Shown here: positions 4,214-49,134 of the stretch, in pieces
How the letters are laid out: every line of letters starts with the position of its first letter
Position numbering within the stretch: the first letter of the stretch is position 1
Source: Planctomycetota bacterium
GTDB lineage: Bacteria; Planctomycetota; UBA11346
Direction of reading: 5' to 3'
DNA length: 49,134 bases
Assembly: GCA_038213805.1 (NCBI GenBank)
Contig: JBBQSO010000037.1
Coordinates: 1 to 49,134 of the forward strand
The notes under the pieces: model-generated
Database searches by the model: none
Told to the model about the DNA's origin: nothing
What the model saw: only the letters and a program-made list of their open reading frames with translations
Made by a program: the position numbers and the translations under genes

Positions 4214-4222
4214 GCCGCCACG

Positions 4223-6867: not shown

Positions 6868-6874
6868 GCGCTGG

Positions 6875-6923: not shown

Positions 6924-6958
6924 CATCCGCCGGTGTTGGTGGGTGGGGCTGCCACACC

Positions 6959-18402: not shown

Positions 18403-18515
18403 GTCTCCACCTCATCGGCGCGGACGTGCGGTCAAGCTCCTGGTCCGTCCTGGCGCAGACGCGCGCGGCCCGCACCATCTGCTGCAGCGGCCCGCGTCCC
18501 AATCATGGAGGCCTC

Positions 18516-19124: not shown

Positions 19125-19128
19125 CGCC

Positions 19129-32294: not shown

Positions 32295-32346
32295 AAAAAA
32301 CCCTCGGCTTGCGCCGAGGGTTTCCACGTGGTTGACCAGGCGGGAC
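32295..32346 (-). mobile_element. Probable att site: orphan tRNA 3' end followed by its terminator
   Basis: Minus strand GTCCCGCCTGGTCAACCA (32346-32329) then AAACCCTCGGC-GCAA-GCCGAGGGTTTTTT; coincides with abrupt drop in GC. Confidence 0.65.
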
Positions 32347-32574
32347 GAGTGCCGAGCAATTCTCTGGTTGTAAGTCCTTTGATGACAATAGGCCCGATAA
32401 GCATGTAGCCTTAAGCTCAACACTTGGGGAGGGGGAAGGGAACGATCTACGACGGCCTTTGGCGAGTCTGTCTTGACAGGCAGGCGGACTATTGCGTCAT
32501 TAGTTCGCATTCAATCACTTACTAAGCAGTGGCCGCTTTTCAGATTGCCGAGACGATCCGGACTTTATCCACCC

Positions 32575-33378
32575 CTAAGGTACTTTTTTCGAAAGAACGA
32601 CAATGTGGGATAGTGAATTCGACATGAAGACGAGGTGAGGCGTGCCATTCAAATCGCCGACGTGTATTTCTCTGACTCCATTATTTTCATCTTCCTTATT
32701 CTCTAACCTTACGAACACCATGTCTGGTCGACTATTATAGCATTGCGCATGACCTGCAATAAATTCTTCCGCAAAATGAATATATTCCTTAGCCAAGGAA
32801 TGATCATCTTTCGCCGCGTTCAATATTTTATCTGTATCCTCCACTTTTATGTGCAAAAGTGCATATAGTATATGAACGCTGGCGCGGTATTCTTCCGTAG
32901 ATTTCGAGGTTAGTCCCATACGCAGGTTTAAAAAAACGGCATTTAGAATTCTCAGCGTTTCCGCATCAGCGGGCGTCACCTTGCGATCCGGCCCAGCAAT
33001 GGGCGTAGCTACGTATTCTTCACGAGATGAACCTGGAACCAGCGCGTGTATTGAGGCATAAAATTCATGACGCTTAGATAAAAAGCGTTGAAAGTCTTCG
33101 GTTTGGGCGCTGTGCATCATCCAATTTCTGCTCAAATCAATGTATTCCAACATCTTGTCGGCAAAGTTTTGATCCTGTAATTCCGCATGGAGCTGACGAC
33201 TGCGCTCATCCGTTGCCTTTGAGGTAGCCTGCAGCTCATCGGCGTATGTCCAGGCATACTCAATACTGTGCTCAGTGGGGTTTCCCGCCGCAATTAGTGC
33301 CAAGTAGTCAGCCTTTGTGTGCTCTTCTCCATGGCACGGAAGATGAAAAAAAAGTAGGTAAGGGAAGAGTGCGCGCAT
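32575..33378 (-). CDS. Hypothetical protein, candidate immunity/accessory protein
   Basis: 267-aa ORF in AT-rich DNA, 9 nt after the upstream stop; hydrophobic N-terminus. Confidence 0.65.
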   Translation of the reverse strand: MRALFPYLLFFHLPCHGEEHTKADYLALIAAGNPTEHSIEYAWTYADELQATSKATDERSRQLHAELQDQNFADKMLEYIDLSRNWMMHSAQTEDFQRFLSKRHEFYASIHALVPGSSREEYVATPIAGPDRKVTPADAETLRILNAVFLNLRMGLTSKSTEEYRASVHILYALLHIKVEDTDKILNAAKDDHSLAKEYIHFAEEFIAGHAQCYNSRPDMVFVRLENKEDENNGVREIHVGDLNGTPHLVFMSNSLSHIVVLSKKVP

Positions 33379-33387
33379 GAGGTATTC

Positions 33388-34152
33388 CTATTCGACAATG
33401 ATTCTGAATGAGCCATCAATGTCTCCTGGGCCATGGGCCGGACGCAGGACATGGTTGGCTAGGTTCATGTAATCGTAGACCCGTGATCCGTAGCCGCAAC
33501 CACAGACAACACCGCAATTTCCTTTATCATGGTAATAATCATCGACCTGAGCCCCAGCTGGGGGATATGAGCCGATATCAGGATACGGAGCATTGTCCGA
33601 CATATCATATCTATCTTGCACCCAGTGCGAAGCTATGCCTACCATGTCATATAAGCCAAACGGGTTTGTTGGATATTGACCAATTTTCCTGACGGTCCGA
33701 TGTCGGTCTCGCTCTTCGCCCCTCCAACTCTCGCGAATAACTGGAACAAATTGAGCCGTCCGCTCTTCGTTTGCAATCTCGTGGTCCGATGTGGCCCAGT
33801 ATGCTGGATTTCTTGTTCCTCCGCTGCATGCCAAAAGCCACTGAGCGCACGTAGGCAACGAGAATGTTTTTCCATACACCTTTGATATTTTTTTGAGGAA
33901 TAAATCAACTTCCGACCGACCGATTCCTGTGGCGGGGCACAATTGGTCATCGGATTTAATTAGTGGCATTGACGAGAAGCTATATTCACCCATGAATTCT
34001 CGCCATTGACCACGTGTGATGAGATATTTACTGATTTTGAACGGCTTGGTCACCCTTACCGTGAATGCTTTGGCAACGAGATTTGATTCCATGCAAGGAA
34101 CGAGACAAGTTCCCGGAGGAATTTCGGCAAATTGCAGGTCCGTAGAATACAT
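33388..34152 (-). CDS. FGE-sulfatase (SUMF1) domain protein, candidate immunity protein
   Basis: IPPG, FKISKYLITRGQW, FSLPTCAQW, NPFGLYDMVG, terminal SFRI. Confidence 0.85.
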   Translation of the reverse strand: MYSTDLQFAEIPPGTCLVPCMESNLVAKAFTVRVTKPFKISKYLITRGQWREFMGEYSFSSMPLIKSDDQLCPATGIGRSEVDLFLKKISKVYGKTFSLPTCAQWLLACSGGTRNPAYWATSDHEIANEERTAQFVPVIRESWRGEERDRHRTVRKIGQYPTNPFGLYDMVGIASHWVQDRYDMSDNAPYPDIGSYPPAGAQVDDYYHDKGNCGVVCGCGYGSRVYDYMNLANHVLRPAHGPGDIDGSFRIIVE

Positions 34153-34157
34153 AGGTA

Positions 34158-36479
34158 CTATTTCACCGATGTTCCGAATATTTCCGCGAGTTGCGGAAAT
34201 ATTTCGTCATTATAGAGGTCAGTTATGAGTTGGAGTCGTTTTGCTTTATCACTGTCTCTGAAAAACTCACGGTTTATCAATGCTATGGTCTTTTTATAAT
34301 TGGTCAGATCGAATTTCAAGACTCCGCGTTCCAAAATGGCAGCATCCTGAAACGCGTCTTCGATGAGTCGATGGTAAGCTCCAGAAAATTCAGTGGAGAC
34401 GCTCGTACTTCCGGTTGCGTGCCCTAATGCGATTTTCCCAATAGCATTGTCAGCAGGAGCAAATCCTAAGTTTTTTGCTGCTAGCTCAGGCGTTGGCCAA
34501 TGACGACTAGCTTTGTTGTTGAACCGCACGGCGTCGACCGAGATTCGCGTCTCATCTATGGCTCGCAAGCACTTCAAAGCGAATGGAGCCTCGGCTTGGG
34601 TGCGAAAATTCTGAATAATCCAGGCAAAGGTTTCGCGCGGGACTGCTTCGTGATATCCGCCCTGTTTCAATGCTAATTTCTTGAATTTAGTGTACAGCGC
34701 CGTATTCATTTCAAGCGTGCCATCAGGCAAGAACCTCCCGGCCATGTTAACAAATACCTCCCATTTGTCTGAGTATGTCCGAATGAAATTGAATATTCCG
34801 CGATTTCCCTTTGCCAAGAAGGCCAGCCATTGCTTGGTAAAACAAGGACCATTGTGAACCAGAATCGGAAATTCACCGACATAATAATCGTGAAAATCCT
34901 TTACGATGAGGGTGTAGCAAATGCCTCCAGCGATACCCCTAGAAGATCGGAGAGATGCATCCTGGGTTGTATCAAACGGAATCAAGTGATCAGCCGGAAG
35001 AAGATATTGAGCCGGGATCCATTTTATTTGTGATCTATCCTCACTCCTTACCGCAAATGGATGGATGCCCGTGGGGTGCACTTCCCCAGAATGACCATCT
35101 GCGAGTTCATAGTTGAAGGAAAGAAATTCTGATGCTTGATTGACAATTACATCCGACACGATTCCGTCGACATGTTTTTCATTTTCGACATCGTACGATG
35201 TCACGATATCGCCTACGCGGATTTCACTAATTGGCCTCAATCCTTTGGGGGTTAAGACGGGATCGTCTCCCCTAAAGCAATTAATATCTCGGCAGACTAT
35301 GCCAACGAACTCGAGCGCATCATTGCTCAACCGCGCAATTGTCCTGACACCCTCGGCATTTTCCAACTCCGCAATAAAGCGAGCCGAGTTTTCAGCCAGG
35401 TCTTTAATGCCAGCCTTCGCAGTCCTTGCAAATGCTACGCAGACCTTGCCAGTTAGATTTAGAACGCGCGACCCTCCCCTTGTCACGACTTTGAGCAGCA
35501 GCCCTTGGACTGGAACGGGAATTGCGTTTATGATGGCCTCCACGGGATCAATCAACCCTTCATCCCATAGAACAAAATTCACAACAATTGCTGATCCGGC
35601 ATTTGCAGTAGAAACTATCGAGAAGAGTGATGCCACATTGTGTGCGACTGCAGTTCTTTGCTTTTGGCATATTTCATCAACTATTTTCCTAATATCATCA
35701 GTCTTCGTCGGATCGGCAGCCGCTTGATTCAGCGTCATTGCGAGGTTCTGCTCTTCCGTTCCCGGCCTCAGGGCGTTGGCATAGGCATTGATCATAGCAT
35801 TTCTTGACTCAACCGAAACTAGAACGCCATTATCGTAAATATCTTTTTGGAAGAATTGCTCTACGATTTCCCCTGCGATCGTCCATGGATTCGCGGTATC
35901 TTGCACAGTTATAGTGATTAGATTGTCCGCATGCGGGTCTTTATCGACAGATGCGGCACTACCGAAGATATTGAATGCACTGGGGGTATATAAGGAGAAA
36001 GTCCCCCATGGGACTCCATTTCGGAATTGAGTTGTATCCATGTATTGAAGCATGGCTTCGCCCTGCACGCCCCCGAGCGCCTTAATTGCCAATCGCAAGG
36101 TCTTTTTATCGAGTTTGGTGGCTGTGGCGCCCGTCTTTAACGGGTCTACTGGACTCGAAGAAAAACGAATCGAGACGCCGAGCCGTTCCAGATCTGTTTT
36201 ATTGTAGTGTATGCCGCGAATGATGACTGTTCCGTCGGCCAATTTGCTCGCACTGTTGTTTATTTTATCTATGACAATGCATTCAGATCGAAGCCAACCG
36301 GATTGCTGCGCATCTTCACCGAGGAGCACGAATCCGCTCGGAAATCCCTCGTTATCTACAATGGGATATTCGTTGTCTTGGTCGTCGCCGCGCACAAGCG
36401 GCATGGCCACGAAGAGTATAAACGCTAGACTAAAGAGCCGTATAGGCACGGCCCAAAATAATGCATGTGCACTTTTCAT
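34158..36479 (-). CDS. Secreted polymorphic toxin with Hint (BIL/PT-HINT) domain, ~773 aa
   Basis: GAAGGA RBS, signal peptide MKSAHALFW...LVRG; Hint CFRGDD...HPF...ILVHN (35279-34851); ~230-aa C-terminal domain with GGYHE, GH, YH. Confidence 0.85.
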   Translation of the reverse strand: MKSAHALFWAVPIRLFSLAFILFVAMPLVRGDDQDNEYPIVDNEGFPSGFVLLGEDAQQSGWLRSECIVIDKINNSASKLADGTVIIRGIHYNKTDLERLGVSIRFSSSPVDPLKTGATATKLDKKTLRLAIKALGGVQGEAMLQYMDTTQFRNGVPWGTFSLYTPSAFNIFGSAASVDKDPHADNLITITVQDTANPWTIAGEIVEQFFQKDIYDNGVLVSVESRNAMINAYANALRPGTEEQNLAMTLNQAAADPTKTDDIRKIVDEICQKQRTAVAHNVASLFSIVSTANAGSAIVVNFVLWDEGLIDPVEAIINAIPVPVQGLLLKVVTRGGSRVLNLTGKVCVAFARTAKAGIKDLAENSARFIAELENAEGVRTIARLSNDALEFVGIVCRDINCFRGDDPVLTPKGLRPISEIRVGDIVTSYDVENEKHVDGIVSDVIVNQASEFLSFNYELADGHSGEVHPTGIHPFAVRSEDRSQIKWIPAQYLLPADHLIPFDTTQDASLRSSRGIAGGICYTLIVKDFHDYYVGEFPILVHNGPCFTKQWLAFLAKGNRGIFNFIRTYSDKWEVFVNMAGRFLPDGTLEMNTALYTKFKKLALKQGGYHEAVPRETFAWIIQNFRTQAEAPFALKCLRAIDETRISVDAVRFNNKASRHWPTPELAAKNLGFAPADNAIGKIALGHATGSTSVSTEFSGAYHRLIEDAFQDAAILERGVLKFDLTNYKKTIALINREFFRDSDKAKRLQLITDLYNDEIFPQLAEIFGTSVK

Positions 36480-36480
36480 A

Positions 36481-39400
36481 TTAAGGTCCTTCATTTTCGA
36501 GAAGTTGCGATATCGGCTTCTTGGTAGGCGCGTAGTCGGTGCCATTTATAATGACATGGTTGGGATTCGGGAAATTTGCGTCCTTATAGATCGTAACGGG
36601 ATAATAAACTCGCAACGTCCCCAAGGGCGTCCTCGTGGATTCAACCGGCTCAAGAAGGTACCTATAGTGAGCACCGCTTGGCTGAGTGCGCGAATAATCA
36701 GTCATAATAGGAATGTTCCAGGTCGAATAGCCTCGGTACCCAGCGGCATTTGTTGCTTCAATTTGGAAGAATACATTGTCATAGGGAACGCTATCAAAAT
36801 GCACTGAACCGGAATGGTTATAATCCAAAGACCTTGGCTTTAGGGCATTGCCTGGATTATAAAGCAAGGGTATATTTCCCAAAATAATGTCATTGGCTGT
36901 AATCTTAACCGATTGTATTTGCTTTCCCTCTATCGCATAGTCCGAAGATGGATCAGTAATCGTAACATCATAACTAATGTCGATCCCATTTTGGTTTCCT
37001 GAATCGTCTGTTGAAATTGTTGCGGAAACAACAGTCAAATCGATATTGGGATATGGGAGATCCACTGTCGGAGTGTAGTCATTTGATGATTCCGTTTTTC
37101 CGGTCTCTTCGTCGATATAGACGATTCGGGAATCCCATACGGTCACGCTCAACGTTTTGCTCATTCGATGTGCCCCGTTTTCCCCCTTATACGGGTCAGG
37201 ATTTTCTGGACTCGGGCTCTCGAAACCGGGCGTTGGGGAATGAAAGTAAACTGCGCCAAGTTTGATATCTATGTCGCATATCTGCGCCGGTGCGTCACGG
37301 GCAATATCGAGATCCAATTCAAGCGCCTGAACGAGCGACCCATTTTTTCCCTCAACAACAAGACGTTGAGCAACTATTGCGATCTTGCCGCTCCGGGTCA
37401 ATGGATCCGCCTGCGGATCGTAGGATGACGCTGGCTGTGTTATATCGACTCCATTGCCAAGAAAATGCACATAATCGCCTTTTGGATTAAAGTTATTTAT
37501 AGTCAGCGTATCGTTGAGGAAACCAGCCTCAATCCTGACAGTCATAGTAGTACCTGCAAGCAAGACATCTGGACTCAACTTAACAAAGTTTAACCACCGA
37601 AATCCCGCTCGTGAGTTGTAAGCCTTTGCGGGATACGTAAACAGACTTGATGTTCCATAAATTAGGCGAGTGAAGCCAGGATCGATCGCATCGACCATTC
37701 TCGCCGGCTGCCCCGGTACTTGAGAAATGAGCGGGTCGACGATCGACCGGCTAAGCGGCAGCGTGCCGCGCAATGCGGGCTGCCCACTCACCGTCACCAT
37801 TGAAGGAGTCAAAAATTGTACTGAGGCGTGGCTGTCTGGATGAACGCTTTCGACAACCATGGTTTTTTGTGTTGGGTTCGCCCCAATTGCGATGATTCCG
37901 TGGTCTTGGACTTGAATCGGAATCGAGTTAGTTTGAGTTTGCCAGGATGGGGGAACGGAAATCACTGCGGGCGCTACTGATATCTGGGGATCGACCCCGA
38001 CATCGATAGGATTGACAAGAAGACTCGTATATTGAACAACACCATCTGGAGAATCGATAAGCTCCACGTTGTTCACCCTTGCCCCATTCCAATAATCATT
38101 GGGGTCGGTGGTGTAGTCCAGCCATCCATCGCGTATTCCGTCTCTGAAGTTTCCGAGAAGCTGCAATTCGATTTCCGCTAGAGTCACATCGGAACTTTTC
38201 CCAATAATGAATCGGTAGGCATCCTGGGTGGGCGGAAATAGCTTATCGAAAATTGGACGCTCCGACGCGCTTGCGTTATTGCCGTATCCTGAAGTATCGA
38301 ATATATAGTCCTTCCCCCCATGGCCATTAGGCGGTCCGTGATAACGGACGTCTAATCGTTTCCGATTCATGTCGCGTGAAATGGGAGCCGATCTGTTTCC
38401 GAGGAAATCTTCCACGATTACTGTCACCTTTCCGGCCCCCGATCCGGGAATCTCCACGGGTTTGAGTAGCCTCCATCCGGAGACTGAGGGTACCCCCAGC
38501 CCAGTAGAATCGGGATTATTTGGTCCAGAAAGTTCGCGGGGTAGGATTTGGGCATCGTCCACTGAATCTTGCCAGACGACCGCGGCGTCTGGTGTACTGA
38601 CTACCCATCGTGCTGGGCTTATCTCAACATAGGCTCCTAAGCTTGTGTAACGATTGACAAAATCGCCGTACTGGCTCGAAAGGAATGCTCCGACTTGTGC
38701 GGAAGGCTTCTCGCGTTTGACCCACATCTTGAACTGATCGCTTTCGAGAGTGTTTCCTGCCCTGTCCCTGAGGTGCACGTGTAAGGCATAGCGCCCCTTC
38801 TGGGTCAAAAGCGCCAAGGTGTTTGGATCATATTGAACGCTGTCTTCGAGACCGGAGAATCCTGTTATCGTCAAGGTTTGCGCACTTCCATCCGATGAAG
38901 GCTCTGTTGATTGCACCGTAAATGCGGACGAAGACGGTGAAGCGGTCACCGAAGCCTGATCAGTCGCGCTTGAAATACCGCTGTCATCGATGACGGTTGC
39001 CTCTGCCGTGAATCCAGCCGCATCATATACATTCATGTGACGTTTATCTCGTAACGGAATATTTGTTTCGTCAGAATTCGCATTGAGCAAGATCAAGTCT
39101 TGAACATTGGTCGTTGTAGTACGTAGAGGGAATGTCAGGGGATTCGCCAAGGGATCCGAACCGCGCGTTCTGTAGCGCTGCGGAATAGTAAATGCGAGAA
39201 GAGGCGGTTTGGTATCCACGATTAGAACCACTGGCACCTGGGTGGTTCCTTTCGCAATGCTATTTCCATTTGTGGCGATCGCCTGGGCCGTAAAGGAGTG
39301 TCTACCTTCCGCTAAGGCTCCCAATGGTACTATGCCGTTCGTCACGTCATAAATACTTCCATCATCGCTCAATACCTGAGTGGCTGTTATCGCGCCGGGA

Positions 39401-42400
39401 ATCGCCACTGCGGAAACGGATAGCACGACCGGCCCACCGCTATTGTTCGTGAAGAAGACGGACTCCCCATTGAGCTGGCCGGTTCTGTCACCCGTCAACC
39501 CAGATGAAACTCTCAACGTAACCTTGGGAATTCCAGCGGGGAGATTACTGGAATCTCCAGTGATTACTGGCTTACCCGTACTATCGCCGAACGTGATGGT
39601 GGCTGTCGTCGCCGGGCTGATGTGGCCAGAGTCGTCCGCGAAATTCAGGGTCAACGTTGACTGTTGTGATCCCGCAGATGAATTCTCGACATGTGCATCG
39701 AAACCGCCATTTGCGGTGATTTCACCACGAACTGCAGTGAAGGAAGCGGACGCACTGACAAGGAGATGAGTGATGCCGTAGCCATCAGGGACGAAGCCTA
39801 GGGCATCTCCTCCGGCAGTGACTCCCTGGGTGAATTGCACCGATGGCGACGGTAGGTCATCATTGGTAATGGTGTAGAGGAACGTTGCCTGCGATCCGAG
39901 GGTCACTCCCGGTGACGCATCGAGTTGCAAGACGATGGTCTTGGCGAACTCCGGTATCGTGCGGTTCACGACCGTGATCGGGATCATCGCCGAGGTCTCC
40001 CCGGCCGGAACGGTCACCGTCCCGGTGCTCAGCGTGTAATCCGTAGTGGGGTCGGTCGCAGCGCCATTGATGGCCGAGCCACCGGCCACATGGAAAGGGA
40101 CCACGAGGGGCGAGGGGCGCGCCTGATCCAGGATCACTTGCACGCTGACGGAGGTAACCGCGTCATCGCCTTGGGCGGCGGCGGCACCGAACGACACCAC
40201 CGCTGGGCGGCCTGTGCCGTGAATGGTAATTGTGAGCGTCGCCTGGGCGCCGGCGGTCGCATCTTGCAGGCCGGTCAGCTGGAGGGTGAGGGTGCGATCA
40301 TCGGCCGCCCCGCTGGCGAGAATGGTCAGCGGGAGCGAGGTCGAGGTGGCGCCGGGCGCGAGGACGACGTTGGCGGAGGGAAGGATGAAGTCGGTTCCGG
40401 CAACCGCGTTGCCGCCGGCAACCACTACCATGGCCGTGGCGGGAACGCCGCTCGGACCATTGAGACTCAGGGGCAGCGCAATGGTTCCCGCCGTCTGCTC
40501 CGCGGCGACCGTCGCTTGGCTGAAGGCCAGCACTGGGAGCGGATCTGCATCATGGATGGTGAGGACCGTGCTTGCGGTCGCGCCCAGCGTGGCACCAACC
40601 GGCTGGGACAGGGTCACCACCAGCGTCAGGTCAGGATCATGGAGATGATCATCCAGCAGGGTTACCGGCAGCACGACGCTGGGGCTACCGGGTGGGATGG
40701 TGAGTTGGCCTGCGGCCAGGGGCGCAAAGTTGACGCCGGCCTGAGCACTGCCGGCGGTGACCGCATACGCGACCGTCACGGGTAGGCCGCTGGCGGTGCT
40801 CAGGGTCACTGGCAGGGCAATCGTACCCGCGGTCTCGAGTGCCTGGATGGCCCCCAGTTGGAAGGCGACCACCGGAAGGGGGTCGGTATCCACGATGGTG
40901 ACCGTCGCGATGGTCGTCGCTCCCAAGGTGGCATTGGCAGGAGCGCCCAGGGCCAAGGTCACGCTGGTATCCAGGGTATGGATGTGGTCATCCAGCGGCG
41001 TCAGTGCGATCGTCTGGTGGGTGCTGCCGGGAGCGAACGTGAGGGTGCCCGCGGGAAGGAGCACATAGTTCGTGCCCGCGACCGCAGATCCTCCGGTGAC
41101 CTGATAGGCGATGGTGACCGGCAACGGATAGGCATGCGTCAGATCGACGGCGATGAGCGCGGCTGAACCGGCATTTTCCGGAATGGCCGAGCTGGGATCG
41201 GTAAATGCCACCAGCGGCGGGAGCACCGGTGCTGGGGCGATGTCGACGAACGCGAGGCTGGCCCCGATAGCTCCAGGACCGGCAACCACGCTGAGCCGGC
41301 CATCCGCAACCGTGACCCGCGTCGTCGACTCCACCCAATGCCGTGATCCGGTCAGGGTTCCCGCAAGTGCGGACACGCCTTCGCAGAAGACCTGCTCGCT
41401 GGCGATGGAATTGGTGGCGTCGCCGGCAACCACGTGGACGAGGTAGTCGCCATTTGGCACCGCGATCTCCCACAGGGCACCGGCAGGCGTCGGGACGCCG
41501 GTGTCGTAGCGCTGATCTGGGGATGCAGCGCTGGCGCGCGCGAAGGCCGTCGCGGTGGAGGTGGCCCAGCCATACTGGAAGCCATTGCCCTGATCCGCAA
41601 AGGGCTGACCGCTGTCCGGCAGGTAGCCCGCAGGGGCGGGGATTCCAGCCGGCTGGAAATTGACATGGAGTTCCTGGCCAAGGACAGAGATCAGGACCGT
41701 GGCGCTGGTGCTGAGGATCCCATCGCTGGCGGTCAGGCGCAGGCGATACAGACCCGGAACCGTCACGGTCGCCGTGGTCGCCGCCTGGGCTGCGTTCGTG
41801 AATTGCACCGGCCCGGGGCCCGAGTCGGCCGTCCAAGCGACGCTCAGCGTGGAGCCAGCCGGCAGTCCATCGTCGTGAATCGTTCCGTTCAGGACGATCG
41901 GCAACGTCAGCGCCAGGCTCTGCGTGGGTCCCGCATCAACCACGGGTGGCAGGTCAGCGGGGCCGGCATGGAGGCTTCCCGACAGCGAGCTGATGCTCTG
42001 CGCCGGCAGGGTCAGCGTCAGCTGGCCGGCGTGCGGCCGGCGACCGCCCAGGTCCAGAAGACTTGCGGTTTGGCTCGTCCGCACCAGGGCAAGATTCCGG
42101 TCCGGCAGGCCGGTGATGCGCACCCGGGCCGGGCGCGCGCTGGTGTTGATGATCTGCGTCATGAAGGTGTTGCGGCCTTCATCGGCGGCAGCGAACGCCT
42201 GCAGGACGGGAACCGTGGGCGTAGCGGCGACGAGATGCATCCCCGGTGTAAGGCGGTCTGCGAGCTGTTTAACCACCACTCCGGACGGGTAGAGCCGGCC
42301 CGTCGCCGGGTCGGCGAGCGGGAAATCGTTCTGGTAGGACCAGAAGTCGAGCACGGACGCTTGGCCGACGCTCAGCGTGCGCTGCGTCACCAAGGCCAGG

Positions 42401-44823
42401 CGCCAGGCGTTGTCCCACGTCGAGAACGTGCCGGGATTCGTGCGATAGACCTGGGCGTCGTAGCCGATCTCGGTCGCCCATACCGGCAGGCCATGGCTCG
42501 CTGCCAGGGACGCGGCGCCGGCGAAGGCGGCATCGGGACGCGCTTCGGCGTCCCAGGTATGCAGGCCGAGGGCCAGGAGCAGCGGGCGTGCCTGGGCGTC
42601 ATCCAGGGCAGGCGCGGCGTACGGTACGTCGGAGGCGATGCTGGTGGCATCGCCAGCCACCCAGCCTGTCGTCAACCCGCGGGCGCGGAAGCCCAGCACA
42701 GCGCGCACGGCCAGCGGAGCAACCTGGCTGGACGGGACCAGCAGATTGAATCCACCATCCGCTTCATTGAGGGACACGGCCTGGATGTCGATACCGTACA
42801 GGTCGTGGGCATGGAGGAGGAAGGCGGTGATCGCGGCGGTGAAGGGCACCTCCATGCCGGGTGCCAAGGATCTGGCGGTGACCGCGCTCGGATCGGTCAC
42901 CATCCAGTCGGGGGCGTCCCAGATGCTGGCGATGATCGGGATGTGGCGTCGCTGGAGGTCCTGCAGCAACAGGAAGACGTTGTGCACGTCCCCGGCATCG
43001 CTGTAGCCCAGGTCGGGTGCCGCCGGATCGACGGCGACCGGTGCCCAGCCCTTCAGCGGAATTCCGATCCGGGCGTGCGAGGGCGATAGCTGCGCAAGCG
43101 TCGCTGCGCCAACGCTGTCGTTGGGCTGGGCCGAGCCCGTGAAACGGCCATTGGCGAAGTTGCCACCGATGCCAGTGATGGTTTGGAAGCGTGTGGCTTG
43201 GTCGATGGCGATCTGGGCGCGCGTGATCCGATCGTCATCGCGGAGGAGGACAGTCGCGCTGGCAGGCGTGCCGACGGCGACGCCAGACCCTGCTGACACG
43301 GTTACCACCACCGACTGGTTGCCATAGGCGATGGTATCCTGGATGGGCATGACATCGATGGACGCCGAGGTGGCTCCTGCGGGGATGACCACCGTCCCTG
43401 AGAGCGGCACGTACTCGACACCGGGCTGCGCGGTGCCACCGACCGTGTAGGCAACTGGCAGCGAGGCCGAGGTGTCGCCGGTACGGGTGACCACCAGGAT
43501 GCCGGGGCGTAGGTGGCGTTCCCTGGCCACGGCGGGATCAGCGATGATGCCGACCGTCGGCAGCGCTGCGGTCGTCCCGACATACCGCACCCGCATGACG
43601 TGGGCGCCCGCATCATCGAAGCGGCTGCCGGAATCAGCGAAGAAGTCGGTAAAATAGAGGCCATCGGAGCCAGCTGCCAGCCCGACCGCAGTGGCCTTGC
43701 CGGTGCCGACGTATTCTACCAGTGGCACCGGGCCACTGACGAGCTGCGCGTTCCCATCCAGGGTGAATTCACTGATGCGCTTCCCATTCGCGAGCGGGCC
43801 ATTCACCCAATACGAGCCAAACTCGGAGACGAACGCGTGATCGCGCTTGTCGATCGGAAAGCCGCTCCCCGAGAACGTGCTGGCCTGCACGAAGGCCAGG
43901 TTCACCGGGGCATGGGCGGGGCTCCACGTGTAGCACGCGCCAATGGCCATGCTCGCATCGGACCCATCATAACCGAAGGATTCCCCGGAGAGAACGCGTG
44001 CGAAGCGATCGACGGTCGGCCCGTTCTCGACGCTGTAGTGCTGCCCATCCGCGGCACGCCAGTCGCCGCCGAAGGGATTGCGCAGGCCACTGGCGAACAC
44101 GTAGTCGCGGGCGGTGATGCCATCGCTGGCATCGAAGAAGGGATTGTCCGAGGCCGGCGTGCCATCCGCGTTCATGCGCAGGATCTTGCCGCCGAACGAA
44201 TCGAGGTTCTGCGCCAGGAGCGGACTTCCAGCGTCGCCAACATGGACGTAGAGCTTCCCATCCGGCCCGAAGCTCAGTGAGGAAGCCATGTGCGAGGTGG
44301 TGAGGGCGAGCGCCGGCATCTGCAGGATGACGGACTGCGAGGCTGCGGTCGCGCCGCCATCAGTGCTATGGAGGCGCAGGACTTCGGGATGGAGGGCGCC
44401 GCCATCCTGGTAGGCGAGGCTGACCAAGACATCACCGGTCGCTGGTTCGACGACGATGCCGGCCAAGCCGACCTCACCCGCCCCTGGAAAACCCGAGCGG
44501 GGGGCGAAATTCAGCAGACCGGTCGCATAGGTGGAGACATCGCCATCACGGGCCACGACCTTAATGTTCCCGGAGAGCTCCGTGACGTAGAACCACGGCG
44601 AGTCCGGATCAGAGCCAGGGTGAGGAATAAAAGCGATGTCAACCGGCAGGCGCAGGCCGCCGGCCACGGTCTCTACGACATAGCCGTCCTGCCGCGGTTG
44701 CCAGCCGGCTTCGGGCCCGCTTGCCGCCTCTGCCCGGTGGCCCAGGGATGCCGCGCTGAGCGCAAGGGAACCGAGTCCCGCCGCCAGCTGGCGGAGGCGG
44801 GAGGAACGGGCGCGCATCTGCAT
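36481..44823 (-). CDS. Giant secreted multidomain protein (~2780 aa): PQQ/GSDH beta-propeller, Calx-beta, GH30-like TIM barrel, PKD, malectin-like, Calx-beta repeats, unknown C-terminal half
   Basis: Signal peptide; FGPDGKLYV.VGD, GKILR, GLRNPF (GSDH); VTRTGD..L.V.Y..GGTA (Calx-beta); NE and WATE (clan GH-A glutamates); VDAGP..DDGLP; VNFQP..GYLPD. Confidence 0.85.
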   Translation of the reverse strand: MQMRARSSRLRQLAAGLGSLALSAASLGHRAEAASGPEAGWQPRQDGYVVETVAGGLRLPVDIAFIPHPGSDPDSPWFYVTELSGNIKVVARDGDVSTYATGLLNFAPRSGFPGAGEVGLAGIVVEPATGDVLVSLAYQDGGALHPEVLRLHSTDGGATAASQSVILQMPALALTTSHMASSLSFGPDGKLYVHVGDAGSPLLAQNLDSFGGKILRMNADGTPASDNPFFDASDGITARDYVFASGLRNPFGGDWRAADGQHYSVENGPTVDRFARVLSGESFGYDGSDASMAIGACYTWSPAHAPVNLAFVQASTFSGSGFPIDKRDHAFVSEFGSYWVNGPLANGKRISEFTLDGNAQLVSGPVPLVEYVGTGKATAVGLAAGSDGLYFTDFFADSGSRFDDAGAHVMRVRYVGTTAALPTVGIIADPAVARERHLRPGILVVTRTGDTSASLPVAYTVGGTAQPGVEYVPLSGTVVIPAGATSASIDVMPIQDTIAYGNQSVVVTVSAGSGVAVGTPASATVLLRDDDRITRAQIAIDQATRFQTITGIGGNFANGRFTGSAQPNDSVGAATLAQLSPSHARIGIPLKGWAPVAVDPAAPDLGYSDAGDVHNVFLLLQDLQRRHIPIIASIWDAPDWMVTDPSAVTARSLAPGMEVPFTAAITAFLLHAHDLYGIDIQAVSLNEADGGFNLLVPSSQVAPLAVRAVLGFRARGLTTGWVAGDATSIASDVPYAAPALDDAQARPLLLALGLHTWDAEARPDAAFAGAASLAASHGLPVWATEIGYDAQVYRTNPGTFSTWDNAWRLALVTQRTLSVGQASVLDFWSYQNDFPLADPATGRLYPSGVVVKQLADRLTPGMHLVAATPTVPVLQAFAAADEGRNTFMTQIINTSARPARVRITGLPDRNLALVRTSQTASLLDLGGRRPHAGQLTLTLPAQSISSLSGSLHAGPADLPPVVDAGPTQSLALTLPIVLNGTIHDDGLPAGSTLSVAWTADSGPGPVQFTNAAQAATTATVTVPGLYRLRLTASDGILSTSATVLISVLGQELHVNFQPAGIPAPAGYLPDSGQPFADQGNGFQYGWATSTATAFARASAASPDQRYDTGVPTPAGALWEIAVPNGDYLVHVVAGDATNSIASEQVFCEGVSALAGTLTGSRHWVESTTRVTVADGRLSVVAGPGAIGASLAFVDIAPAPVLPPLVAFTDPSSAIPENAGSAALIAVDLTHAYPLPVTIAYQVTGGSAVAGTNYVLLPAGTLTFAPGSTHQTIALTPLDDHIHTLDTSVTLALGAPANATLGATTIATVTIVDTDPLPVVAFQLGAIQALETAGTIALPVTLSTASGLPVTVAYAVTAGSAQAGVNFAPLAAGQLTIPPGSPSVVLPVTLLDDHLHDPDLTLVVTLSQPVGATLGATASTVLTIHDADPLPVLAFSQATVAAEQTAGTIALPLSLNGPSGVPATAMVVVAGGNAVAGTDFILPSANVVLAPGATSTSLPLTILASGAADDRTLTLQLTGLQDATAGAQATLTITIHGTGRPAVVSFGAAAAQGDDAVTSVSVQVILDQARPSPLVVPFHVAGGSAINGAATDPTTDYTLSTGTVTVPAGETSAMIPITVVNRTIPEFAKTIVLQLDASPGVTLGSQATFLYTITNDDLPSPSVQFTQGVTAGGDALGFVPDGYGITHLLVSASASFTAVRGEITANGGFDAHVENSSAGSQQSTLTLNFADDSGHISPATTATITFGDSTGKPVITGDSSNLPAGIPKVTLRVSSGLTGDRTGQLNGESVFFTNNSGGPVVLSVSAVAIPGAITATQVLSDDGSIYDVTNGIVPLGALAEGRHSFTAQAIATNGNSIAKGTTQVPVVLIVDTKPPLLAFTIPQRYRTRGSDPLANPLTFPLRTTTTNVQDLILLNANSDETNIPLRDKRHMNVYDAAGFTAEATVIDDSGISSATDQASVTASPSSSAFTVQSTEPSSDGSAQTLTITGFSGLEDSVQYDPNTLALLTQKGRYALHVHLRDRAGNTLESDQFKMWVKREKPSAQVGAFLSSQYGDFVNRYTSLGAYVEISPARWVVSTPDAAVVWQDSVDDAQILPRELSGPNNPDSTGLGVPSVSGWRLLKPVEIPGSGAGKVTVIVEDFLGNRSAPISRDMNRKRLDVRYHGPPNGHGGKDYIFDTSGYGNNASASERPIFDKLFPPTQDAYRFIIGKSSDVTLAEIELQLLGNFRDGIRDGWLDYTTDPNDYWNGARVNNVELIDSPDGVVQYTSLLVNPIDVGVDPQISVAPAVISVPPSWQTQTNSIPIQVQDHGIIAIGANPTQKTMVVESVHPDSHASVQFLTPSMVTVSGQPALRGTLPLSRSIVDPLISQVPGQPARMVDAIDPGFTRLIYGTSSLFTYPAKAYNSRAGFRWLNFVKLSPDVLLAGTTMTVRIEAGFLNDTLTINNFNPKGDYVHFLGNGVDITQPASSYDPQADPLTRSGKIAIVAQRLVVEGKNGSLVQALELDLDIARDAPAQICDIDIKLGAVYFHSPTPGFESPSPENPDPYKGENGAHRMSKTLSVTVWDSRIVYIDEETGKTESSNDYTPTVDLPYPNIDLTVVSATISTDDSGNQNGIDISYDVTITDPSSDYAIEGKQIQSVKITANDIILGNIPLLYNPGNALKPRSLDYNHSGSVHFDSVPYDNVFFQIEATNAAGYRGYSTWNIPIMTDYSRTQPSGAHYRYLLEPVESTRTPLGTLRVYYPVTIYKDANFPNPNHVIINGTDYAPTKKPISQLLENEGP

Positions 44824-45204
44824 AGTGAAATCCGATTCGTCATGAAGGAGGGGCTGAAACGGGCAGAACCATAGTGCATGAGGGTCCCGAGGCAACCATC
44901 GGTCAATGAGGCAGGTGAGAGAGTCTATGGGGTCGCGCGAGAAGATGCTGTAAGTGCCATGTGAGGAAACGGTTTGGACTTCCTCCCGCGATGGTCCGCA
45001 GTGGGAAGTGAGAGTCGCAGTCTTCCGGGCGGGCGTCAGATGTCGTCCGGCTATCGCGCTGCTTTACAAACGCAACTATCAGTAGTTATACACATGGAGG
45101 GGCCCTTTCCGTCTGCATAGCTGCGCGAATCAGCGGTCCCTCTCCGCCAAGCCTCTCGACTTCTAGGCCCTCGTCCCATCAGGATTTGTGCCGTTCTACA
45201 AACG

Positions 45205-45675
45205 CTAAACGGTCTCATGGCACAGCCACGCAGGCACCTCCGCCCTGACCTCAGCAGGAAGTGCCTCCCGCGCTGCTGCCGGCAGCGCCCCATAGAGCGC
45301 CACGGCTGCGATGCCCGCGAGCTGCCCAGCAGCCTTCGCCACACCCTGGCGTCGGGGGCTATGCAGCAGCGCGGCGTCGATGGCGAGGAGGATGCGGAGG
45401 ATGTCGCCGATCTGCTCGACGTTCAGGTTCTCGGGCGGGGGATTGGGGGTGGTCGGGAAGATGGCCGTGGGGTCGGCGGTGCCCATGCCGGTGCAGCGAG
45501 CGGCCAGCAAGATGGCCGCGACCGGACGCGGACCGTGCTGCCGGAATTCGGGCACGAAGGGCAGGGCGGGCGCCGACTCGGCGCTCAGGGCGCTGGAGAG
45601 GTAGGATCGGTTGACGCCGATCCACCGCGCGGCGGATTCGAGGTTACGGGCCATCCAGGGGGCGGTGGTGCTCAT
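45205..45675 (-). CDS. HTH-containing phage-like protein (possibly Nu1-like)
   Basis: NLESAARWIGVNRSYLS helix-turn-helix pattern at the N-terminus; ATG 45675. Confidence 0.5.
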   Translation of the reverse strand: MSTTAPWMARNLESAARWIGVNRSYLSSALSAESAPALPFVPEFRQHGPRPVAAILLAARCTGMGTADPTAIFPTTPNPPPENLNVEQIGDILRILLAIDAALLHSPRRQGVAKAAGQLAGIAAVALYGALPAAAREALPAEVRAEVPAWLCHETV

Positions 45676-45986
45676 GGGGTGGACTTCAGTGGGTGTGGAC
45701 GGGGAGGACGGAGTCGAGCCACGACAGTGGGCGGTTTGGAGCGCAGATCCGCGGCTATGGGCGCAGGTTCGCGTGCAGGTGAACGGTCCTTGGAGCTGGT
45801 AGCCGCGACGGCTGACGACTGATGGACCCCGCCAGCGGAGGGAGGCTCGGCACACGTGCCCTGATGTGGCCAACACCTGCGCCACGATGGCGCACCGTGG
45901 GCGGTCCTGCGGGAGCGACGGCGCACGCGTTGTTGTTGTTCAGGCCGTTTTCCCCAAAGTTTGCGCGCAAAAAAACCGACCTATGC

Positions 45987-46027
45987 GCGTACCGACCCAT
46001 CGAGCCTGGGGCCGGCCGGGAGGACCC
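45987..46027 (-). other. Lambda-type cos-like packaging site (cosQ + cosN-like)
   Basis: Minus strand GGGTCCT, 22 nt, GGGTCGGTACGC, then GC block and T-run; lambda has GGGTCCT about 23 nt before GGGCGGCGACCT. Confidence 0.4.
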
Positions 46028-46435
46028 GGGAACGGAGTGCGCTGCGAGGTTCCATGTGGGACCCGTTGCGGTCGCAGTGTGGCCACGCTGCGGCGAATGG
46101 GGGTCATGGTCACACATCGCGAGCGTTCGAAGCACGACGGTGGCGAGCAGGGTCACAGAAGTCTGCGGACATTGGCCGTGTGGTGTGCGTTGGCAGCGAC
46201 GGTCGTTGGCCGGATCTGTGACCACCCCTGACGAACGATCGGGCCTGTGGCGGGCCCCCCGGGGCAACGTTGCCCAACGTGTCGGGACTTGGGACGATCG
46301 CGCAGTTGTTGTTGTTCGCAGGTGTGACCATGTGGCGGGGGATGGTGTGTGTAAAAGGGCCTCTCGATCGGCGTAGCCAACCGCTCAAGGGTCCCCCGCT
46401 GAAAGGAACCGTGGCTCGCTTCTTGGGCAGGTGCT

Positions 46436-46852
46436 TCATGACCGTCCTCGCGCGTCGCCATCGGTTGCCACCTGGACGGCGTGGCTCTCGGTGCTGGTGG
46501 GTGCGCCGGTGACGACGGTGATGCGCTGCTGCGACTGACTGAGCACCTGCTCCAGGGTTGGCGTCGTCGCGGGATCCACGGGCTGCTTCTCCCGCCAACC
46601 GGCTCTGGCCTTCAGCCAGAAGATGCAGGCCGCCAACTCACGGCCCTCGGTGGCGCGCTGGAAGAGCGTCTGCGCCACCTTGGCGGTGGCCTTGGCCTCG
46701 CCGTCCTTGAGCTGGTCGTCGTAGTACTTGCGCAGCGTGAGCTCGGCGACGCCGATGATGCGGGCGATCATGTGGTGCGGCACGCCATAGCCGGCCAGCG
46801 CTTCGACTTGGCGACGGCCTTGGGCAGTGGGTTCATAGGGAGGACGACCCAT
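46436..46852 (-). CDS. Phage terminase small subunit-like HTH protein
   Basis: GRPPYEPT..RRQVEALAGYG, IARIIGV..TLRKYY, LFQRA, ACIFWLKARAGWRE; directly after ParB-MTase as in many phages. Confidence 0.7.
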   Translation of the reverse strand: MGRPPYEPTAQGRRQVEALAGYGVPHHMIARIIGVAELTLRKYYDDQLKDGEAKATAKVAQTLFQRATEGRELAACIFWLKARAGWREKQPVDPATTPTLEQVLSQSQQRITVVTGAPTSTESHAVQVATDGDARGRS

Positions 46853-46894
46853 GGGAGCCTTTCGGGCAGTGGGGAAGGCAGACGGCAGCGCGGG

Positions 46895-48187
46895 TCAGAG
46901 GCGCCATTCCAGATCGGGCAGCGCCACAGCGAGCCCTGTCGCCTCGGTGGCCTTGGAAGGGGCCGTGGCGCCCTCCAGGGCCGACCACGGCGTCTGGGTG
47001 CCATCCGGTGCCACGCGGACGGGATCGGTGGCAGCGTAGGCCGCATAGCGGCGCACGATCACGTCGGCGTACCGGGGATCGAGTTCCACGAGGTAGCCGC
47101 GCCGACCGGTCTGCTGGGCGGCGATCATGGTGGTGCCCGAGCCGCCGAAGGGATCGAGGACGATGCCCCCGGTGGGGCAGGAGTTGGTGATCTGGTAGGC
47201 GATCAGCTCGACCGGCTTCATGGTGGGATGCTCGGCGCTGCGGCTGGGCTTGTCGTAGGCCAGCACCGTGGTCTGGCTGCGATCGGACAACCAGGTGTGG
47301 GCTGCGCCGTTCGCCCAGCCGTAGAGGCACGGCTCGTGCTGCCACTGGTAGTCCTGCCGGCCGAGCACGAAGGTATTCTTGGTCCAGATCAGGCACTGCC
47401 GCACGGTCAGCCCAATGGCCGCACAGGCGCTGCGCACCGCCAGGCCTTCGGAGTCGGCGTGCCAGATGTAATAGCCACCCCCGGGCTTCAGGACGCCCAC
47501 CGCGTTGCCCAGGGCGGCCACCAGGAGGCGCCGATAGGCATCATCGCCCAGGTCATCGTTGGCGATGGTCAGGCGATCCTCGGTGCGGCCCTCGTAGCCG
47601 ACGTTGTAGGGCGGGTCGGTCAGCAGCAGGTCGGCCTGCGCCCCGTCCATGAGCCGGCTCATGGTCTCCGGCGCCGTGCTATCGCTGCACAGCAGGCGGT
47701 GATGACCCAGGAGCCACAGGTCCCCGGGGCGTGTGATGGCTTCCCCCAGGGCCGGTGCCGCCGGCACCTCGTCGGGCTCGCCGCCTTCCAACCCGGAGAT
47801 CAGGGTCTCCAGGGCGTGCTCGTCGAAGCCGAGCAGCGCGAGGTCATAGTCCTCCACGCGCAGCTCCTTCAGCTCGGACGCGAGGAGGCCCTCGTCCCAC
47901 CCCGCGCCGAGGGCGATCTGGTTATCGGCGATCACCAGCGCCCGGCGCTGGGTGACGGTGAGATGGTCGAGAACGATGCAGGGCACCTCGGTCATGCCGA
48001 CCTGCTCAGCGGCGGCGAGTCGCCCATGCCCGGCGATGATGCCGCCATCGGGGTCGATGAGCAGCGGATTGGTGAAGCCGAACTCCCGGATGCTGGCCGC
48101 GAGGAGGGCGAGCTGCGCGGCGGGGTGCGTGCGGGGGTTCACGGCGGCAGGGCTGAGGGAGGTGAGGGGGCGGGTAATGATCTGCAT
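46895..48187 (-). CDS. ParB-N domain / DNA N6-N4 methyltransferase (phage-type)
   Basis: NPRTH, FGFTNP, IIAGHGR, ADN (ParB-like); TDPPYNV, HPTMKP, DPFGGSGTT. Confidence 0.92.
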   Translation of the reverse strand: MQIITRPLTSLSPAAVNPRTHPAAQLALLAASIREFGFTNPLLIDPDGGIIAGHGRLAAAEQVGMTEVPCIVLDHLTVTQRRALVIADNQIALGAGWDEGLLASELKELRVEDYDLALLGFDEHALETLISGLEGGEPDEVPAAPALGEAITRPGDLWLLGHHRLLCSDSTAPETMSRLMDGAQADLLLTDPPYNVGYEGRTEDRLTIANDDLGDDAYRRLLVAALGNAVGVLKPGGGYYIWHADSEGLAVRSACAAIGLTVRQCLIWTKNTFVLGRQDYQWQHEPCLYGWANGAAHTWLSDRSQTTVLAYDKPSRSAEHPTMKPVELIAYQITNSCPTGGIVLDPFGGSGTTMIAAQQTGRRGYLVELDPRYADVIVRRYAAYAATDPVRVAPDGTQTPWSALEGATAPSKATEATGLAVALPDLEWRL

Positions 48188-48218
48188 GGCGGGTTCCAGG
48201 AAGGAGGGGGTCAGAGGC

Positions 48219-48402
48219 GAGGTGGGGAACGTTCCCGAGCGCGGCAGCGCGGGAACAGGGTGGGGAACATTGCCCCCCGTTCCCCGTTCCCCAGCTCTGC
48301 GCCCTTAAGGGCGCGCAGAGACCTGGGGAACAGGTCCGGGGTGTACGGTTTGGGTGGTGTTCCCCACCTCACCGCGAGGACGGGAACAGGGGTGGGGAAC
48401 AT
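48219..48402. repeat. Iteron-like cluster (putative replication origin)
   Basis: Ten GGGAAC/GTTCCC hexamers in both orientations around palindrome GCGCCCTTAAGGGCGC (48299-48314), right after the helicase gene. Confidence 0.6.
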
Positions 48403-48428
48403 CGGGAAGTGGGGCTGCGAGAGGCAGG

Positions 48429-49133
48429 TCATGGCTGTCCTTTCGCCATGCGGAGGGCCTCGCTTGCGGTGTCGCTCCGGCAGCCGGCGCGCTCCTTGAG
48501 GGTGCGCACCGACAGGGTCGGGTCCTCCTGGGCGAGGCGGTGAGCCCGCTCTTCAGGGGATTCGGTGCGGCTGCCCGGAAGCCCCACCATCGCACACCCG
48601 TGGGCTCCGGACCACGTCGTGATGATCGGTGTCTGGCCTTCCAGAAGGTCACTGATCGCCAACTCTACATCCGCCTTCCGCAGACGCGGCTGCTCCTTCC
48701 GCAGGGTCGCCACCACCAAGTCGCAGGTTGCACGCGTGGACCGTGGTCCCGTGGTCAATATCCCGATGACGGCAGTGGCGAGCGCATCGCGATCGACGAC
48801 GGGTGTCCCGCCCTTCCTCCCGGCGTCCTGGGCTGCATGGGCATCCCCGGCATGAGCCCACTCAATGCGGGGCACCTCGCTGGCGCCCTCGGTGAAGGGG
48901 TCCGCCCACGCGAAGCGCCACGTCCAGCCGTTCTCGTCGATTCTGCCGAGGTTCGACTTCACCACGCGGAACCAGCGCTCGCCGTCCTGGAGCCCCTTGT
49001 CGAGCAGGCTGGCGACGCGCACCCCCGCGGTCATCTGTGCTGACCCGGCGATGGCGTCCATGGCATCGCCGTCTCCCTGGCCGGACTTGCGCAGGTGCGC
49101 GACGACGACCACCGCCGCTCCGGTCTGGCGGGC
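48429..49133 (-). CDS. AAA_25/RepA-type primase-helicase, C-terminal part (5' truncated by window)
   Basis: ARQTGAAVVVVAHLRK, AIAGS, R....VKSNLG motifs of RecA-like SF4/RepA helicases; frame open to the window edge. Confidence 0.75.
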   Translation of the reverse strand, partial: ARQTGAAVVVVAHLRKSGQGDGDAMDAIAGSAQMTAGVRVASLLDKGLQDGERWFRVVKSNLGRIDENGWTWRFAWADPFTEGASEVPRIEWAHAGDAHAAQDAGRKGGTPVVDRDALATAVIGILTTGPRSTRATCDLVVATLRKEQPRLRKADVELAISDLLEGQTPIITTWSGAHGCAMVGLPGSRTESPEERAHRLAQEDPTLSVRTLKERAGCRSDTASEALRMAKGQP

Positions 49134-49134
49134 C

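Follow-up and report, generated by a model that had tools for sequence, protein, structure and literature searches.

What is carried at the right end of this contig: one phage-satellite-like element with an interbacterial weapon as its cargo, or a phage-derived element and a toxin island that adjoin each other? The question is raised by a 49,134-nucleotide (nt) contig of a Planctomycetota bacterium (JBBQSO010000037.1, here C37), which was analysed over its entire length and is called the window below. Its source, assembly GCA_038213805.1 (G000), is a metagenome-assembled genome (MAG) of 180 contigs that is 90.3% complete. Between 32.39 kb and the contig end lie genes for a giant secreted protein, a polymorphic-toxin-type protein and a candidate immunity protein, next to a phage-like module with a replication gene and a homologue of the small terminase gene terS. 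A reading made earlier from the letters of the contig (the sequence-only reading) had taken all of this for one element. We tentatively favour another description, to which we give somewhat less than an even chance: a satellite-like or domesticated phage element that adjoins an independent polymorphic-toxin and adhesin island.

A phage-derived replication and packaging module

The module is encoded on the minus strand and, from the contig end leftwards, consists of the C-terminus of a replication protein, an iteron cluster, a ParB-methyltransferase gene and the terS homologue (Table 1). This is the order that had been proposed from the sequence (helicase, iterons, ParB-methyltransferase, terS-like gene), and it is borne out by homology to a copy in a genome of the same genus (G010, locus L007), by the iteron cluster itself and by the matches to PF01555, phrog_498 and phrog_309. 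The replication fragment alone gives only a weak PHROG match (phrog_239, E = 0.0024); it is 78% identical to residues 524–757 of the 757-residue L007 protein, which carries Prim-Pol (PF09250) and AAA_25 (PF13481) domains. The ParB-methyltransferase shows 95% amino-acid identity to its L007 counterpart. With up to one mismatch allowed, the iteron GTTCCCCAC is matched 12 times in the window, where 11.6 matches are expected, yet all four exact copies plus two one-mismatch copies (6 of the 12) are clustered between the replication and methyltransferase genes. Four copies occupy the matching position in L007, and the iteron of a full prophage in G010 (L010) is of the GTTTCCCAC type, present in seven copies and differing from that of the window by one base.

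The assignment of the putative terS gene is supported by its family. A total of 343 homologues were detected, and six of the 22 matching phage records are annotated as small terminase. In two of the three records that were opened (phage Y8A and MW202481), the homologue precedes an annotated large terminase gene (terL, within one gene) and a portal gene, the third record being unannotated. Neither terL nor a portal or capsid gene follows terS in the window, just as had been noticed before, and three terL families (phrog_38, PF03237 and PF03354) as well as one portal and one capsid family (phrog_21 and PF05065) have no match anywhere in the assembly. Structural or lysis genes were likewise absent from the window, from a second contig of the element (C154, see below) and from loci L007 and L067, in a search that did not extend to tail and holin families.

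The module does not seem to be decaying. The ratio of non-synonymous to synonymous substitution (dN/dS), measured against the single copy in L007, is 0.29 for the replication fragment, 0.10 for the methyltransferase, 0.27 for terS and 0.17 for ORF156, the last conserved open reading frame (ORF) of the module (four of four genes tested), and these values indicate that the module genes are kept by selection. The sequence-only reading had left the choice between a satellite and a decayed prophage; the replication protein, its cognate origin, terS and the lack of structural genes agree with such a phage-derived element, whereas the dN/dS values speak against the decay.

Continuation and relatives of the element

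The 4.7-kb contig C154 of the same genome carries a cut exonuclease gene (exo) together with genes for Sak4, SSB, RuvC and a superfamily 2 (SF2) helicase. Since the end of C154 matches the DNA just upstream of the L007 replication gene, the element continues on this contig after a gap of about 1.6 kb. The G010 copy, with 86–87% nucleotide identity (87% over 45223–49134), spans two contigs (C678 and C680) and extends over at least 12.2 kb before any cargo; upstream of its exo gene are a low-GC 199-residue ORF and a 279-residue ORF that appears sigma-like by eye. The sequence-only reading had proposed to annotate this continuation. On C154 and in the G010 copy the expected lack of structural genes was found, but no integrase was reached and no AlpA-type regulator was recognised.

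The layout of terS and ORF156 recurs in two of the ten other genomes of the genus (G010 and G001, the latter copy being locus L008) and in two of 47 genomes of the order, and the terS alignment had no match besides G000 among 400 sampled genomes of the phylum. Scans of viral contigs with the replication protein and the terS alignment returned no relative (one weak, unrelated T4-like context was seen), and scans of metagenome contigs with the terS and ORF156 alignments returned no match. A separate observation concerns the replication protein, a relative of which (70% amino-acid identity) is encoded on a 5.2-kb contig labelled as a Nannocystis MAG (L011), along with early-gene relatives at about 71% nucleotide identity; this contig has either been binned wrongly or stems from a phage relative in another phylum.

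Full prophages of a similar type are present in the same genus (L010) and in another planctomycete (L012). Their early and replication genes stand in the matching order and encode proteins with 59–74% amino-acid identity to those of the element, after which come GpA-type terL, portal-protease and decoration genes. Because neither this terS nor ORF156 was found in L010, L012 or a third locus, L013, the element is not simply one of these prophages with a deletion. L010 itself (positions 2303–21640 of a 39-kb G010 contig) is a complete-looking prophage in the 3′ end of a tRNA gene and runs in the order large serine recombinase, sigma factor, exo, Sak4, SSB, RuvC, helicase, Prim-Pol/AAA_25, iterons, ParB-methyltransferase, terL, portal-protease and decoration; the orthologous tRNA site, on contig C30 of G000, is without it. 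In L013 (9977–18335, the second locus of MAG OFTM264), the pair of replication protein and ParB-methyltransferase is followed by a 797-residue CBM96-domain protein instead of terL, and this locus may be a second case of a module without late genes. Two candidates for the missing end of the element were rejected: the start of C30, which is the empty tRNA site relative to L010, and contig C108, whose integrase and exonuclease paralogue do not fit in orientation or identity (27%).

The conserved module ends at 45.2 kb

Beyond terS lies a conserved stretch of about 750 nt in which mismatches and GC content relative to L007 are flat across the codon phases, that is, without codon periodicity. Two AACAACAACAAC motifs lie in it at a distance of about 370 nt, L008 has the motif as well, and Rfam gave no match for the stretch. 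A cos-like site had been suggested earlier; none could be verified, and we regard the conserved stretch instead as a candidate packaging or regulatory site.

ORF156, the next and last conserved gene, has just three other members in a collection of 5.8 billion proteins and no match in Pfam, PHROG, NCBIfam or PADLOC. Its AlphaFold2 model, built from three sequences, has a mean predicted local distance difference test (pLDDT) value of 54 and is too poor for a fold search, and the best ESM Atlas score of 0.85 is a lead only.

From the three-way alignment it is clear that the homology of the three copies ends at about position 45,225 of the window, within a few codons of the ORF156 end. The motif TTTGTAGRACG stands 20–50 nt after the last shared codons, occurs once in the 5.5-Mb genome and once each in L007 and L008, and is followed by unrelated sequence in each case. 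In the window the giant gene comes next; in G010 there is an unrelated 141-residue ORF and then the contig end (an IS66-like label for this ORF was dropped, as it matches no Pfam family and is supported by no tool). In G001, ORF161 is followed by lower-GC DNA with a 358-residue ORF of no known kind, a small helix-turn-helix-like ORF and, 1.5 kb past ORF161, a RhuM-family gene (positions 17–1027 of L008, contig C575) that PADLOC places in the candidate defence family PDC-S05 (4e-142). A related contig from an unrelated study (about 90% identity) aligns to 45281–45685 and then carries 324 nt that are unlike the window on the cargo side.

The sequence-only reading had treated the genes for the surface protein, the toxin and its immunity protein, which take up 12.8 kb, as cargo of the element. 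This does not agree with the module homology, which stops near 45.2 kb in both relatives of the genus. As far as the short contigs of these relatives reach, cargo and module are unlinked, a finding that the earlier reading had itself set against its proposal.

The left boundary is a chromosomal hotspot for polymorphic toxins

The cargo had been thought to end at an attachment (att)-like site near 32329. This site is an intrinsic terminator hairpin (Table 1) with no matching repeat. The flank shared with G010 shows 91.6% identity and reaches position 32387, where homology stops; the hairpin thus lies inside the shared flank, and the left boundary of the island is at 32388–32389.

At the very same boundary, beside a DUF4337 gene, G010 carries a lower-GC island between chromosomal genes that encodes a 2191-residue Rhs protein (TIGR03696 Rhs core, 4e-13) and has no phage module. 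In another genome of the genus (G003), ilvA adjoins the DUF4337 gene, and the entire 32.39–49.1 kb is missing from the orthologous site in both G010 and G003. Since a Rhs island without the phage module occupies this boundary in G010, the site is best viewed as a chromosomal hotspot for polymorphic toxins.

Two side observations were made at this locus. The G010 Rhs island (L026, contig C85 of G010, 7599–15428) continues downstream of the Rhs gene with an ORF of about 115 residues, likely an immunity gene, and then an AT3-SGNH acyltransferase gene, the orthologue of which is on C17 in G000. An 80–100-nt sequence with 93–94% identity occurs at C30:41–160 and C121:1581–1677 of G000 and at L026:15208–15288, one copy lying beside the tRNA attachment site of L010 and another at the right edge of the G010 Rhs island; it could represent a leader or promoter common to these places, or else a short repeated element that marks variable regions.

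Table 1. Features of the window from the left boundary of the island to the contig end
Feature	Coordinates	Strand	Remarks
Intrinsic terminator hairpin	32295..32325	-	-27.5 kcal/mol, z = -5.6
ORF267, low-GC, 267 aa, last gene of the low-GC block	32575..33378	-	GC3 0.45; no family match
FGE-sulfatase-fold protein, 254 aa, no signal peptide; candidate immunity protein	33388..34152	-	PF03781 1e-19
Polymorphic-toxin-type protein, 795 aa, secreted	34158..36545	-	PT-HINT PF07591 1e-7, 32.7 bits against a cut-off of 27.7
Giant secreted protein, 2804 aa	36481..44895	-	Pfam: GSDH propeller, PKD, four Calx-beta
Motif TTTGTAGRACG, marks the end of the conserved module	45192..45202	-	three-way alignment
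ORF156, lineage-specific protein, last conserved module gene	45205..45675	-	89% (L007) and 59% (L008) identity
Conserved 750-nt non-coding region	45676..46435	-	83% identity to L007, 4 gap columns
terS-like DNA-binding protein, 138 aa	46436..46852	-	phrog_309 1e-16; no Pfam match
ParB-N / N6-N4 DNA methyltransferase fusion	46895..48187	-	PF01555 9e-24; PF02195 2e-5; phrog_498 4e-158; PADLOC MTase_II 2e-135
Iteron cluster, candidate replication origin	48222..48400	.	GTTCCCCAC in both orientations and GGGGAAC variants
Replication protein Prim-Pol/AAA_25, C-terminal 234 aa	48429..49134	-	5′ part lost at the contig end

A low-GC cassette with a putative toxin gene and a candidate immunity gene

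The cargo genes described in the sequence-only reading do exist, as ORFs of 2804, 795 (PT-HINT), 254 (with the fold of formylglycine-generating enzyme (FGE)-type sulfatase-modifying proteins) and 267 residues. In composition they form a mosaic and differ from the module. The GC content is 63–76% in the left 32 kb of the window, 46–54% at 32.5–40.0 kb and 65–69% onward to the contig end, and the GC content at third codon positions (GC3) falls into three classes: 0.83–0.89 in the phage module, 0.77–0.82 in the N-terminal half of the giant gene and 0.45–0.55 in the cassette. The giant gene is itself a compositional chimera, with a GC3 of 0.77–0.82 up to about residue 1630 and of 0.48–0.55 thereafter, the break lying at 39900–40000 after the last Calx-beta region. 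GC3 then stays at 0.45–0.48 through the PT-HINT protein, the FGE-fold protein and ORF267, so that a single 7.6-kb low-GC block starts inside the giant gene. It looks like the 3′ half of the giant gene was replaced by a foreign cassette.

Relatives of the low-GC half of the giant protein, at 28–35% identity, are found within giant ORFs in 5 of 23 sampled genomes of the same bacterial family. Each of these giant genes is followed by a coupled secreted ORF; the coupled ORFs are unlike one another and unlike the three cargo ORFs of the window, and have no FGE domain. The five loci that were fetched contain no homologue of the window's module or other cargo.

The 795-residue protein starts with a signal peptide (recognised by eye) and continues with a domain of about 400 residues of no known family, the PT-HINT domain at residues 430–565, which resembles the bacterial intein-like domain 2lwy (E = 0.006 for the 795-residue protein), and a near-orphan C-terminal domain of 230 residues. 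Its gene overlaps the stop of the giant gene. A word-based search with the whole protein gave no homologue, and the C-terminal domain has one 190-residue homologue among 1.84 billion representatives and belongs to no recognised toxin family. Domain (residues 566–795) and homologue have in common an LGHxT...TEFSxxYH stretch that includes a conserved His and a conserved Glu. The AlphaFold2 model of this domain (two sequences) has a pLDDT of 51, too poor for a fold search; ESM Atlas gave a best score of 0.89 and PT-HINT-linked clusters of the HNH/SHH type, which are leads only.

Only 6 nt separate the stop of the toxin gene from the start of the FGE-fold gene. An immunity family of FGE-like proteins, Tsi3, has been described (bioRxiv 10.1101/2021.05.21.445229), and this precedent, together with the position directly after the toxin, makes the FGE-fold gene a reasonable candidate for the immunity gene by analogy. 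A complex prediction for the toxin C-terminal domain and the FGE-fold protein gave a score of 0.01.

Proposed history and function of the two parts

According to the description that we favour, 45.2–49.1 kb would be the terminal arm of a phage-derived element, comprising the replication protein and its iteron origin, the ParB-methyltransferase, a pac-type terS, the non-coding site and ORF156. Together with C154, this arm would form an element without particle or lysis genes that may replicate from the iterons and methylate its own DNA. If it is mobile at all, its terS would probably direct packaging by the terL and capsids of a helper phage. For this part, that is, 45.2–49.1 kb plus C154, the satellite idea is plausible.

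The DNA at 32.39–44.9 kb, on the other hand, would be a variable site of the chromosome at which a giant adhesin-type protein is encoded. The 7.6-kb cassette would have replaced the 3′ half of the giant gene and brought in a Sec-exported PT-HINT toxin, the FGE-fold candidate immunity protein and one ORF of no known function. Autoproteolysis by the HINT domain would presumably set the toxin free, and in the producing cell the FGE-fold protein would neutralise it.

Several points weigh against this two-part description. PICIs (phage-inducible chromosomal islands) typically have accessory genes behind terS, according to PMC10085698, and the lower-GC DNA with a candidate defence gene after the G001 copy would fit a cargo bay that follows ORF156. 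The contigs of the relatives are short (5.9–6.4 kb) and end 0.3–2.6 kb after ORF156, so that the G010 synteny could continue beyond an insertion. The giant gene has no close orthologue at the DNA level in the ten other genomes of the genus and therefore also belongs to the flexible genome. As for a satellite identity, exo, Sak4, SSB and RuvC are met with more typically in prophages than in the satellites described so far. The integrase family PF07508 has no match in the assembly, and none of the seven PF00589 matches is on C37 or C154; a search for att repeats gave short repeats at chance level only, leaving neither end of the element defined; no regulator of the AlpA, MerR or Stl type was recognised in the assembled parts; and the assembly contains no helper with a matching terL.

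Alternative explanations

The competing view of a single element must be taken seriously, given that accessory genes follow terS in PICIs and that a defence-type gene adjoins the G001 copy, although we consider this view unlikely. One mobile satellite-like element would then reach from beyond the contig end to 32.39 kb, and a variable accessory bay after ORF156 would hold the giant, toxin and immunity genes. In addition to the PICI precedent, this view can draw on the three copies, each of which is followed by different and partly lower-GC DNA, on the complete absence of 32.39–49.1 kb from the orthologous site in two relatives, on the giant gene having no orthologue in the genus at the DNA level, and on the 45.2-kb junction being real. 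However, no att repeat of the 32.39-kb junction is present anywhere in the assembly, the supposed att site is a terminator in a conserved flank, and the G010 toxin island uses the identical nucleotide boundary without a phage module. Moreover, three compositional classes would have to be accommodated inside one element, and the element together with its cargo would be larger than 25 kb, about twice the median satellite sizes given in PMC10085698 (P4-like median, 10 kb). The toxin and surface genes as element cargo are the weakest part of the single-element view.

An inert prophage remnant has a slightly smaller chance again. Here an L010-like or pac-type prophage would have lost its late genes, the rest being not yet decayed or kept for a benefit to the host; the remnant would be immobile and the toxin island an unrelated neighbour. 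It is well known that defective prophages can be domesticated and kept under purifying selection. The early and replication genes are indeed colinear with those of L010 and L012 at the amino-acid identities given above, no integrase, regulator or capsid-redirecting gene was found, and the assembly holds no helper. It is harder to reconcile a remnant with the end point after ORF156 that is shared by three genomes with three different flanks, since the truncated form must then have been mobile, or three events must have coincided. The dN/dS values are low even for terS, which offers a host no obvious benefit, and ORF156 and this terS were not found in L010, L012 or L013.

A bolder extension of the satellite idea is improbable. 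The element would represent the first satellite lineage of Planctomycetota, assembled from a prophage arm for early, recombination and replication functions, a terS of the pac type taken from elsewhere, an extended non-coding site for packaging, ORF156 and an open cargo bay with different contents in each host, namely a candidate defence gene in G001 and an adhesin–toxin–immunity weapon of more than 12 kb here. If this were true, interbacterial weapons would be spread by a helper phage, and this in a phylum for which there are no descriptions of satellites or of transfer of this kind.

Finally, an assembly chimera, in which a phage contig was joined to a chromosomal one, is highly improbable: the source is a MAG, the contig ends inside a phage gene and the composition shifts along it, but public contigs of two runs span all three junctions (32.39, 40.0 and 45.2 kb) with at most one differing letter. 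These include a 2562-nt public record that covers 43301–45862, and hence the 45.2-kb junction, and a 5.1-kb contig that crosses the GC break inside the giant gene with one differing letter, although the runs may be the source samples and are thus not fully independent support. As far as the public contigs show, the junctions are not assembly artefacts.

Comparison with known systems

Like PICIs and satellites of the Staphylococcus aureus pathogenicity island (SaPI) type, the element encodes its own primase-type replication protein next to an origin, has its own terS without terL, lacks structural and lysis genes in its assembled parts and has variable DNA after the terS end. Of the five core components listed in PMC10085698, the primase-replicase with its origin and the small terminase are found, whereas no capsid-morphogenesis or packaging-redirection gene was recognised in the element; other structural or lysis genes are lacking among the families searched. 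It further differs from PICIs in having no integrase or AlpA/Stl-type regulator recognised in its assembled parts and no known helper, in possessing the prophage-like exo, Sak4, SSB, RuvC and SF2 helicase genes along with the ParB-methyltransferase, and in measuring at least 12.2 kb before any cargo, as judged from the G010 copy. The same source assigns more than 99.9% of predicted PICIs to Proteobacteria or Firmicutes, and the host phylum of the window lies outside these.

With the temperate siphovirus-type prophages L010 and L012 the element shares the order exo, Sak4, SSB, RuvC, helicase, Prim-Pol/AAA_25, iterons and ParB-methyltransferase. The prophages then proceed to their terminase and head genes, while the element has a pac-type terS, the 750-nt region and ORF156, where it stops. 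It is not an intact temperate prophage either, as the DNA after terS is at first non-coding and then carries ORF156 and the giant gene, and no contiguous terL, portal or capsid gene is present.

The toxin resembles Rhs and PT-HINT polymorphic toxins in being part of a secreted multidomain protein with PT-HINT directly before a variable C-terminal domain, in its small downstream gene and in its low-GC cassette, and a Rhs toxin occupies the same locus in G010. It differs from them in that its C-terminal domain has a single detectable homologue and that its gene overlaps the giant-gene stop. As in the type VI pair Tse3–Tsi3 (described in the preprint cited above), a protein of the FGE-sulfatase fold is encoded directly after the toxin gene; the toxin of the window is unrelated to Tse3 as far as tested, and the candidate pairing is drawn here from the arrangement of the genes.

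No report of phage satellites in Planctomycetes was found in the literature searched, and the string 'Planctomyc' is absent from the main text of the SatelliteFinder survey. Should the element prove to work as a satellite, phage satellites would be extended to a phylum for which none were found reported, and with a build that detectors requiring an integrase, AlpA and capsid genes would probably miss. If it is only a remnant, the finding would be an ordinary one. The island documents a cassette-style swap in which a giant surface-protein gene received another 3′ half along with a putative toxin–immunity pair, and also a chromosomal hotspot that holds differing polymorphic toxins (PT-HINT here, Rhs in a relative); both should be useful for studying competition among uncultured planctomycetes.

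Further scans and the chromosomal part of the window

The ends of C37 have no overlap with other contigs of the assembly at k = 21–127, and the assembled contigs of the public runs yielded no usable circular junction of the element. An Rfam scan of the whole window recovered just two tRNAs at its far end, a relaxed scan of 44.7–46.5 kb gave no match, and a consensus scan for promoters and terminators over 44.6–49.1 kb gave no site. The uncovered 32.5–45.3 kb in runs X3 and X4 and the depth of four public runs were not used as evidence.

The left 32 kb carry ordinary chromosomal genes, including the two tRNAs, PSD/PSCyt and DUF1552 proteins, B12-radical-SAM enzymes and a pseudopilin set. Within this part, two adjacent B12-binding radical-SAM genes are found at 11553–21942 together with a GH3-family (acyl-adenylate-forming) gene and a fatty-acid-desaturase-domain gene, at a GC content of up to 76%, and this set may be a cluster for lipid or natural-product modification. 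The pseudopilin-type genes at 29200–31200 adjoin the island and have many paralogues at 64–76% identity across G000 and the genus.

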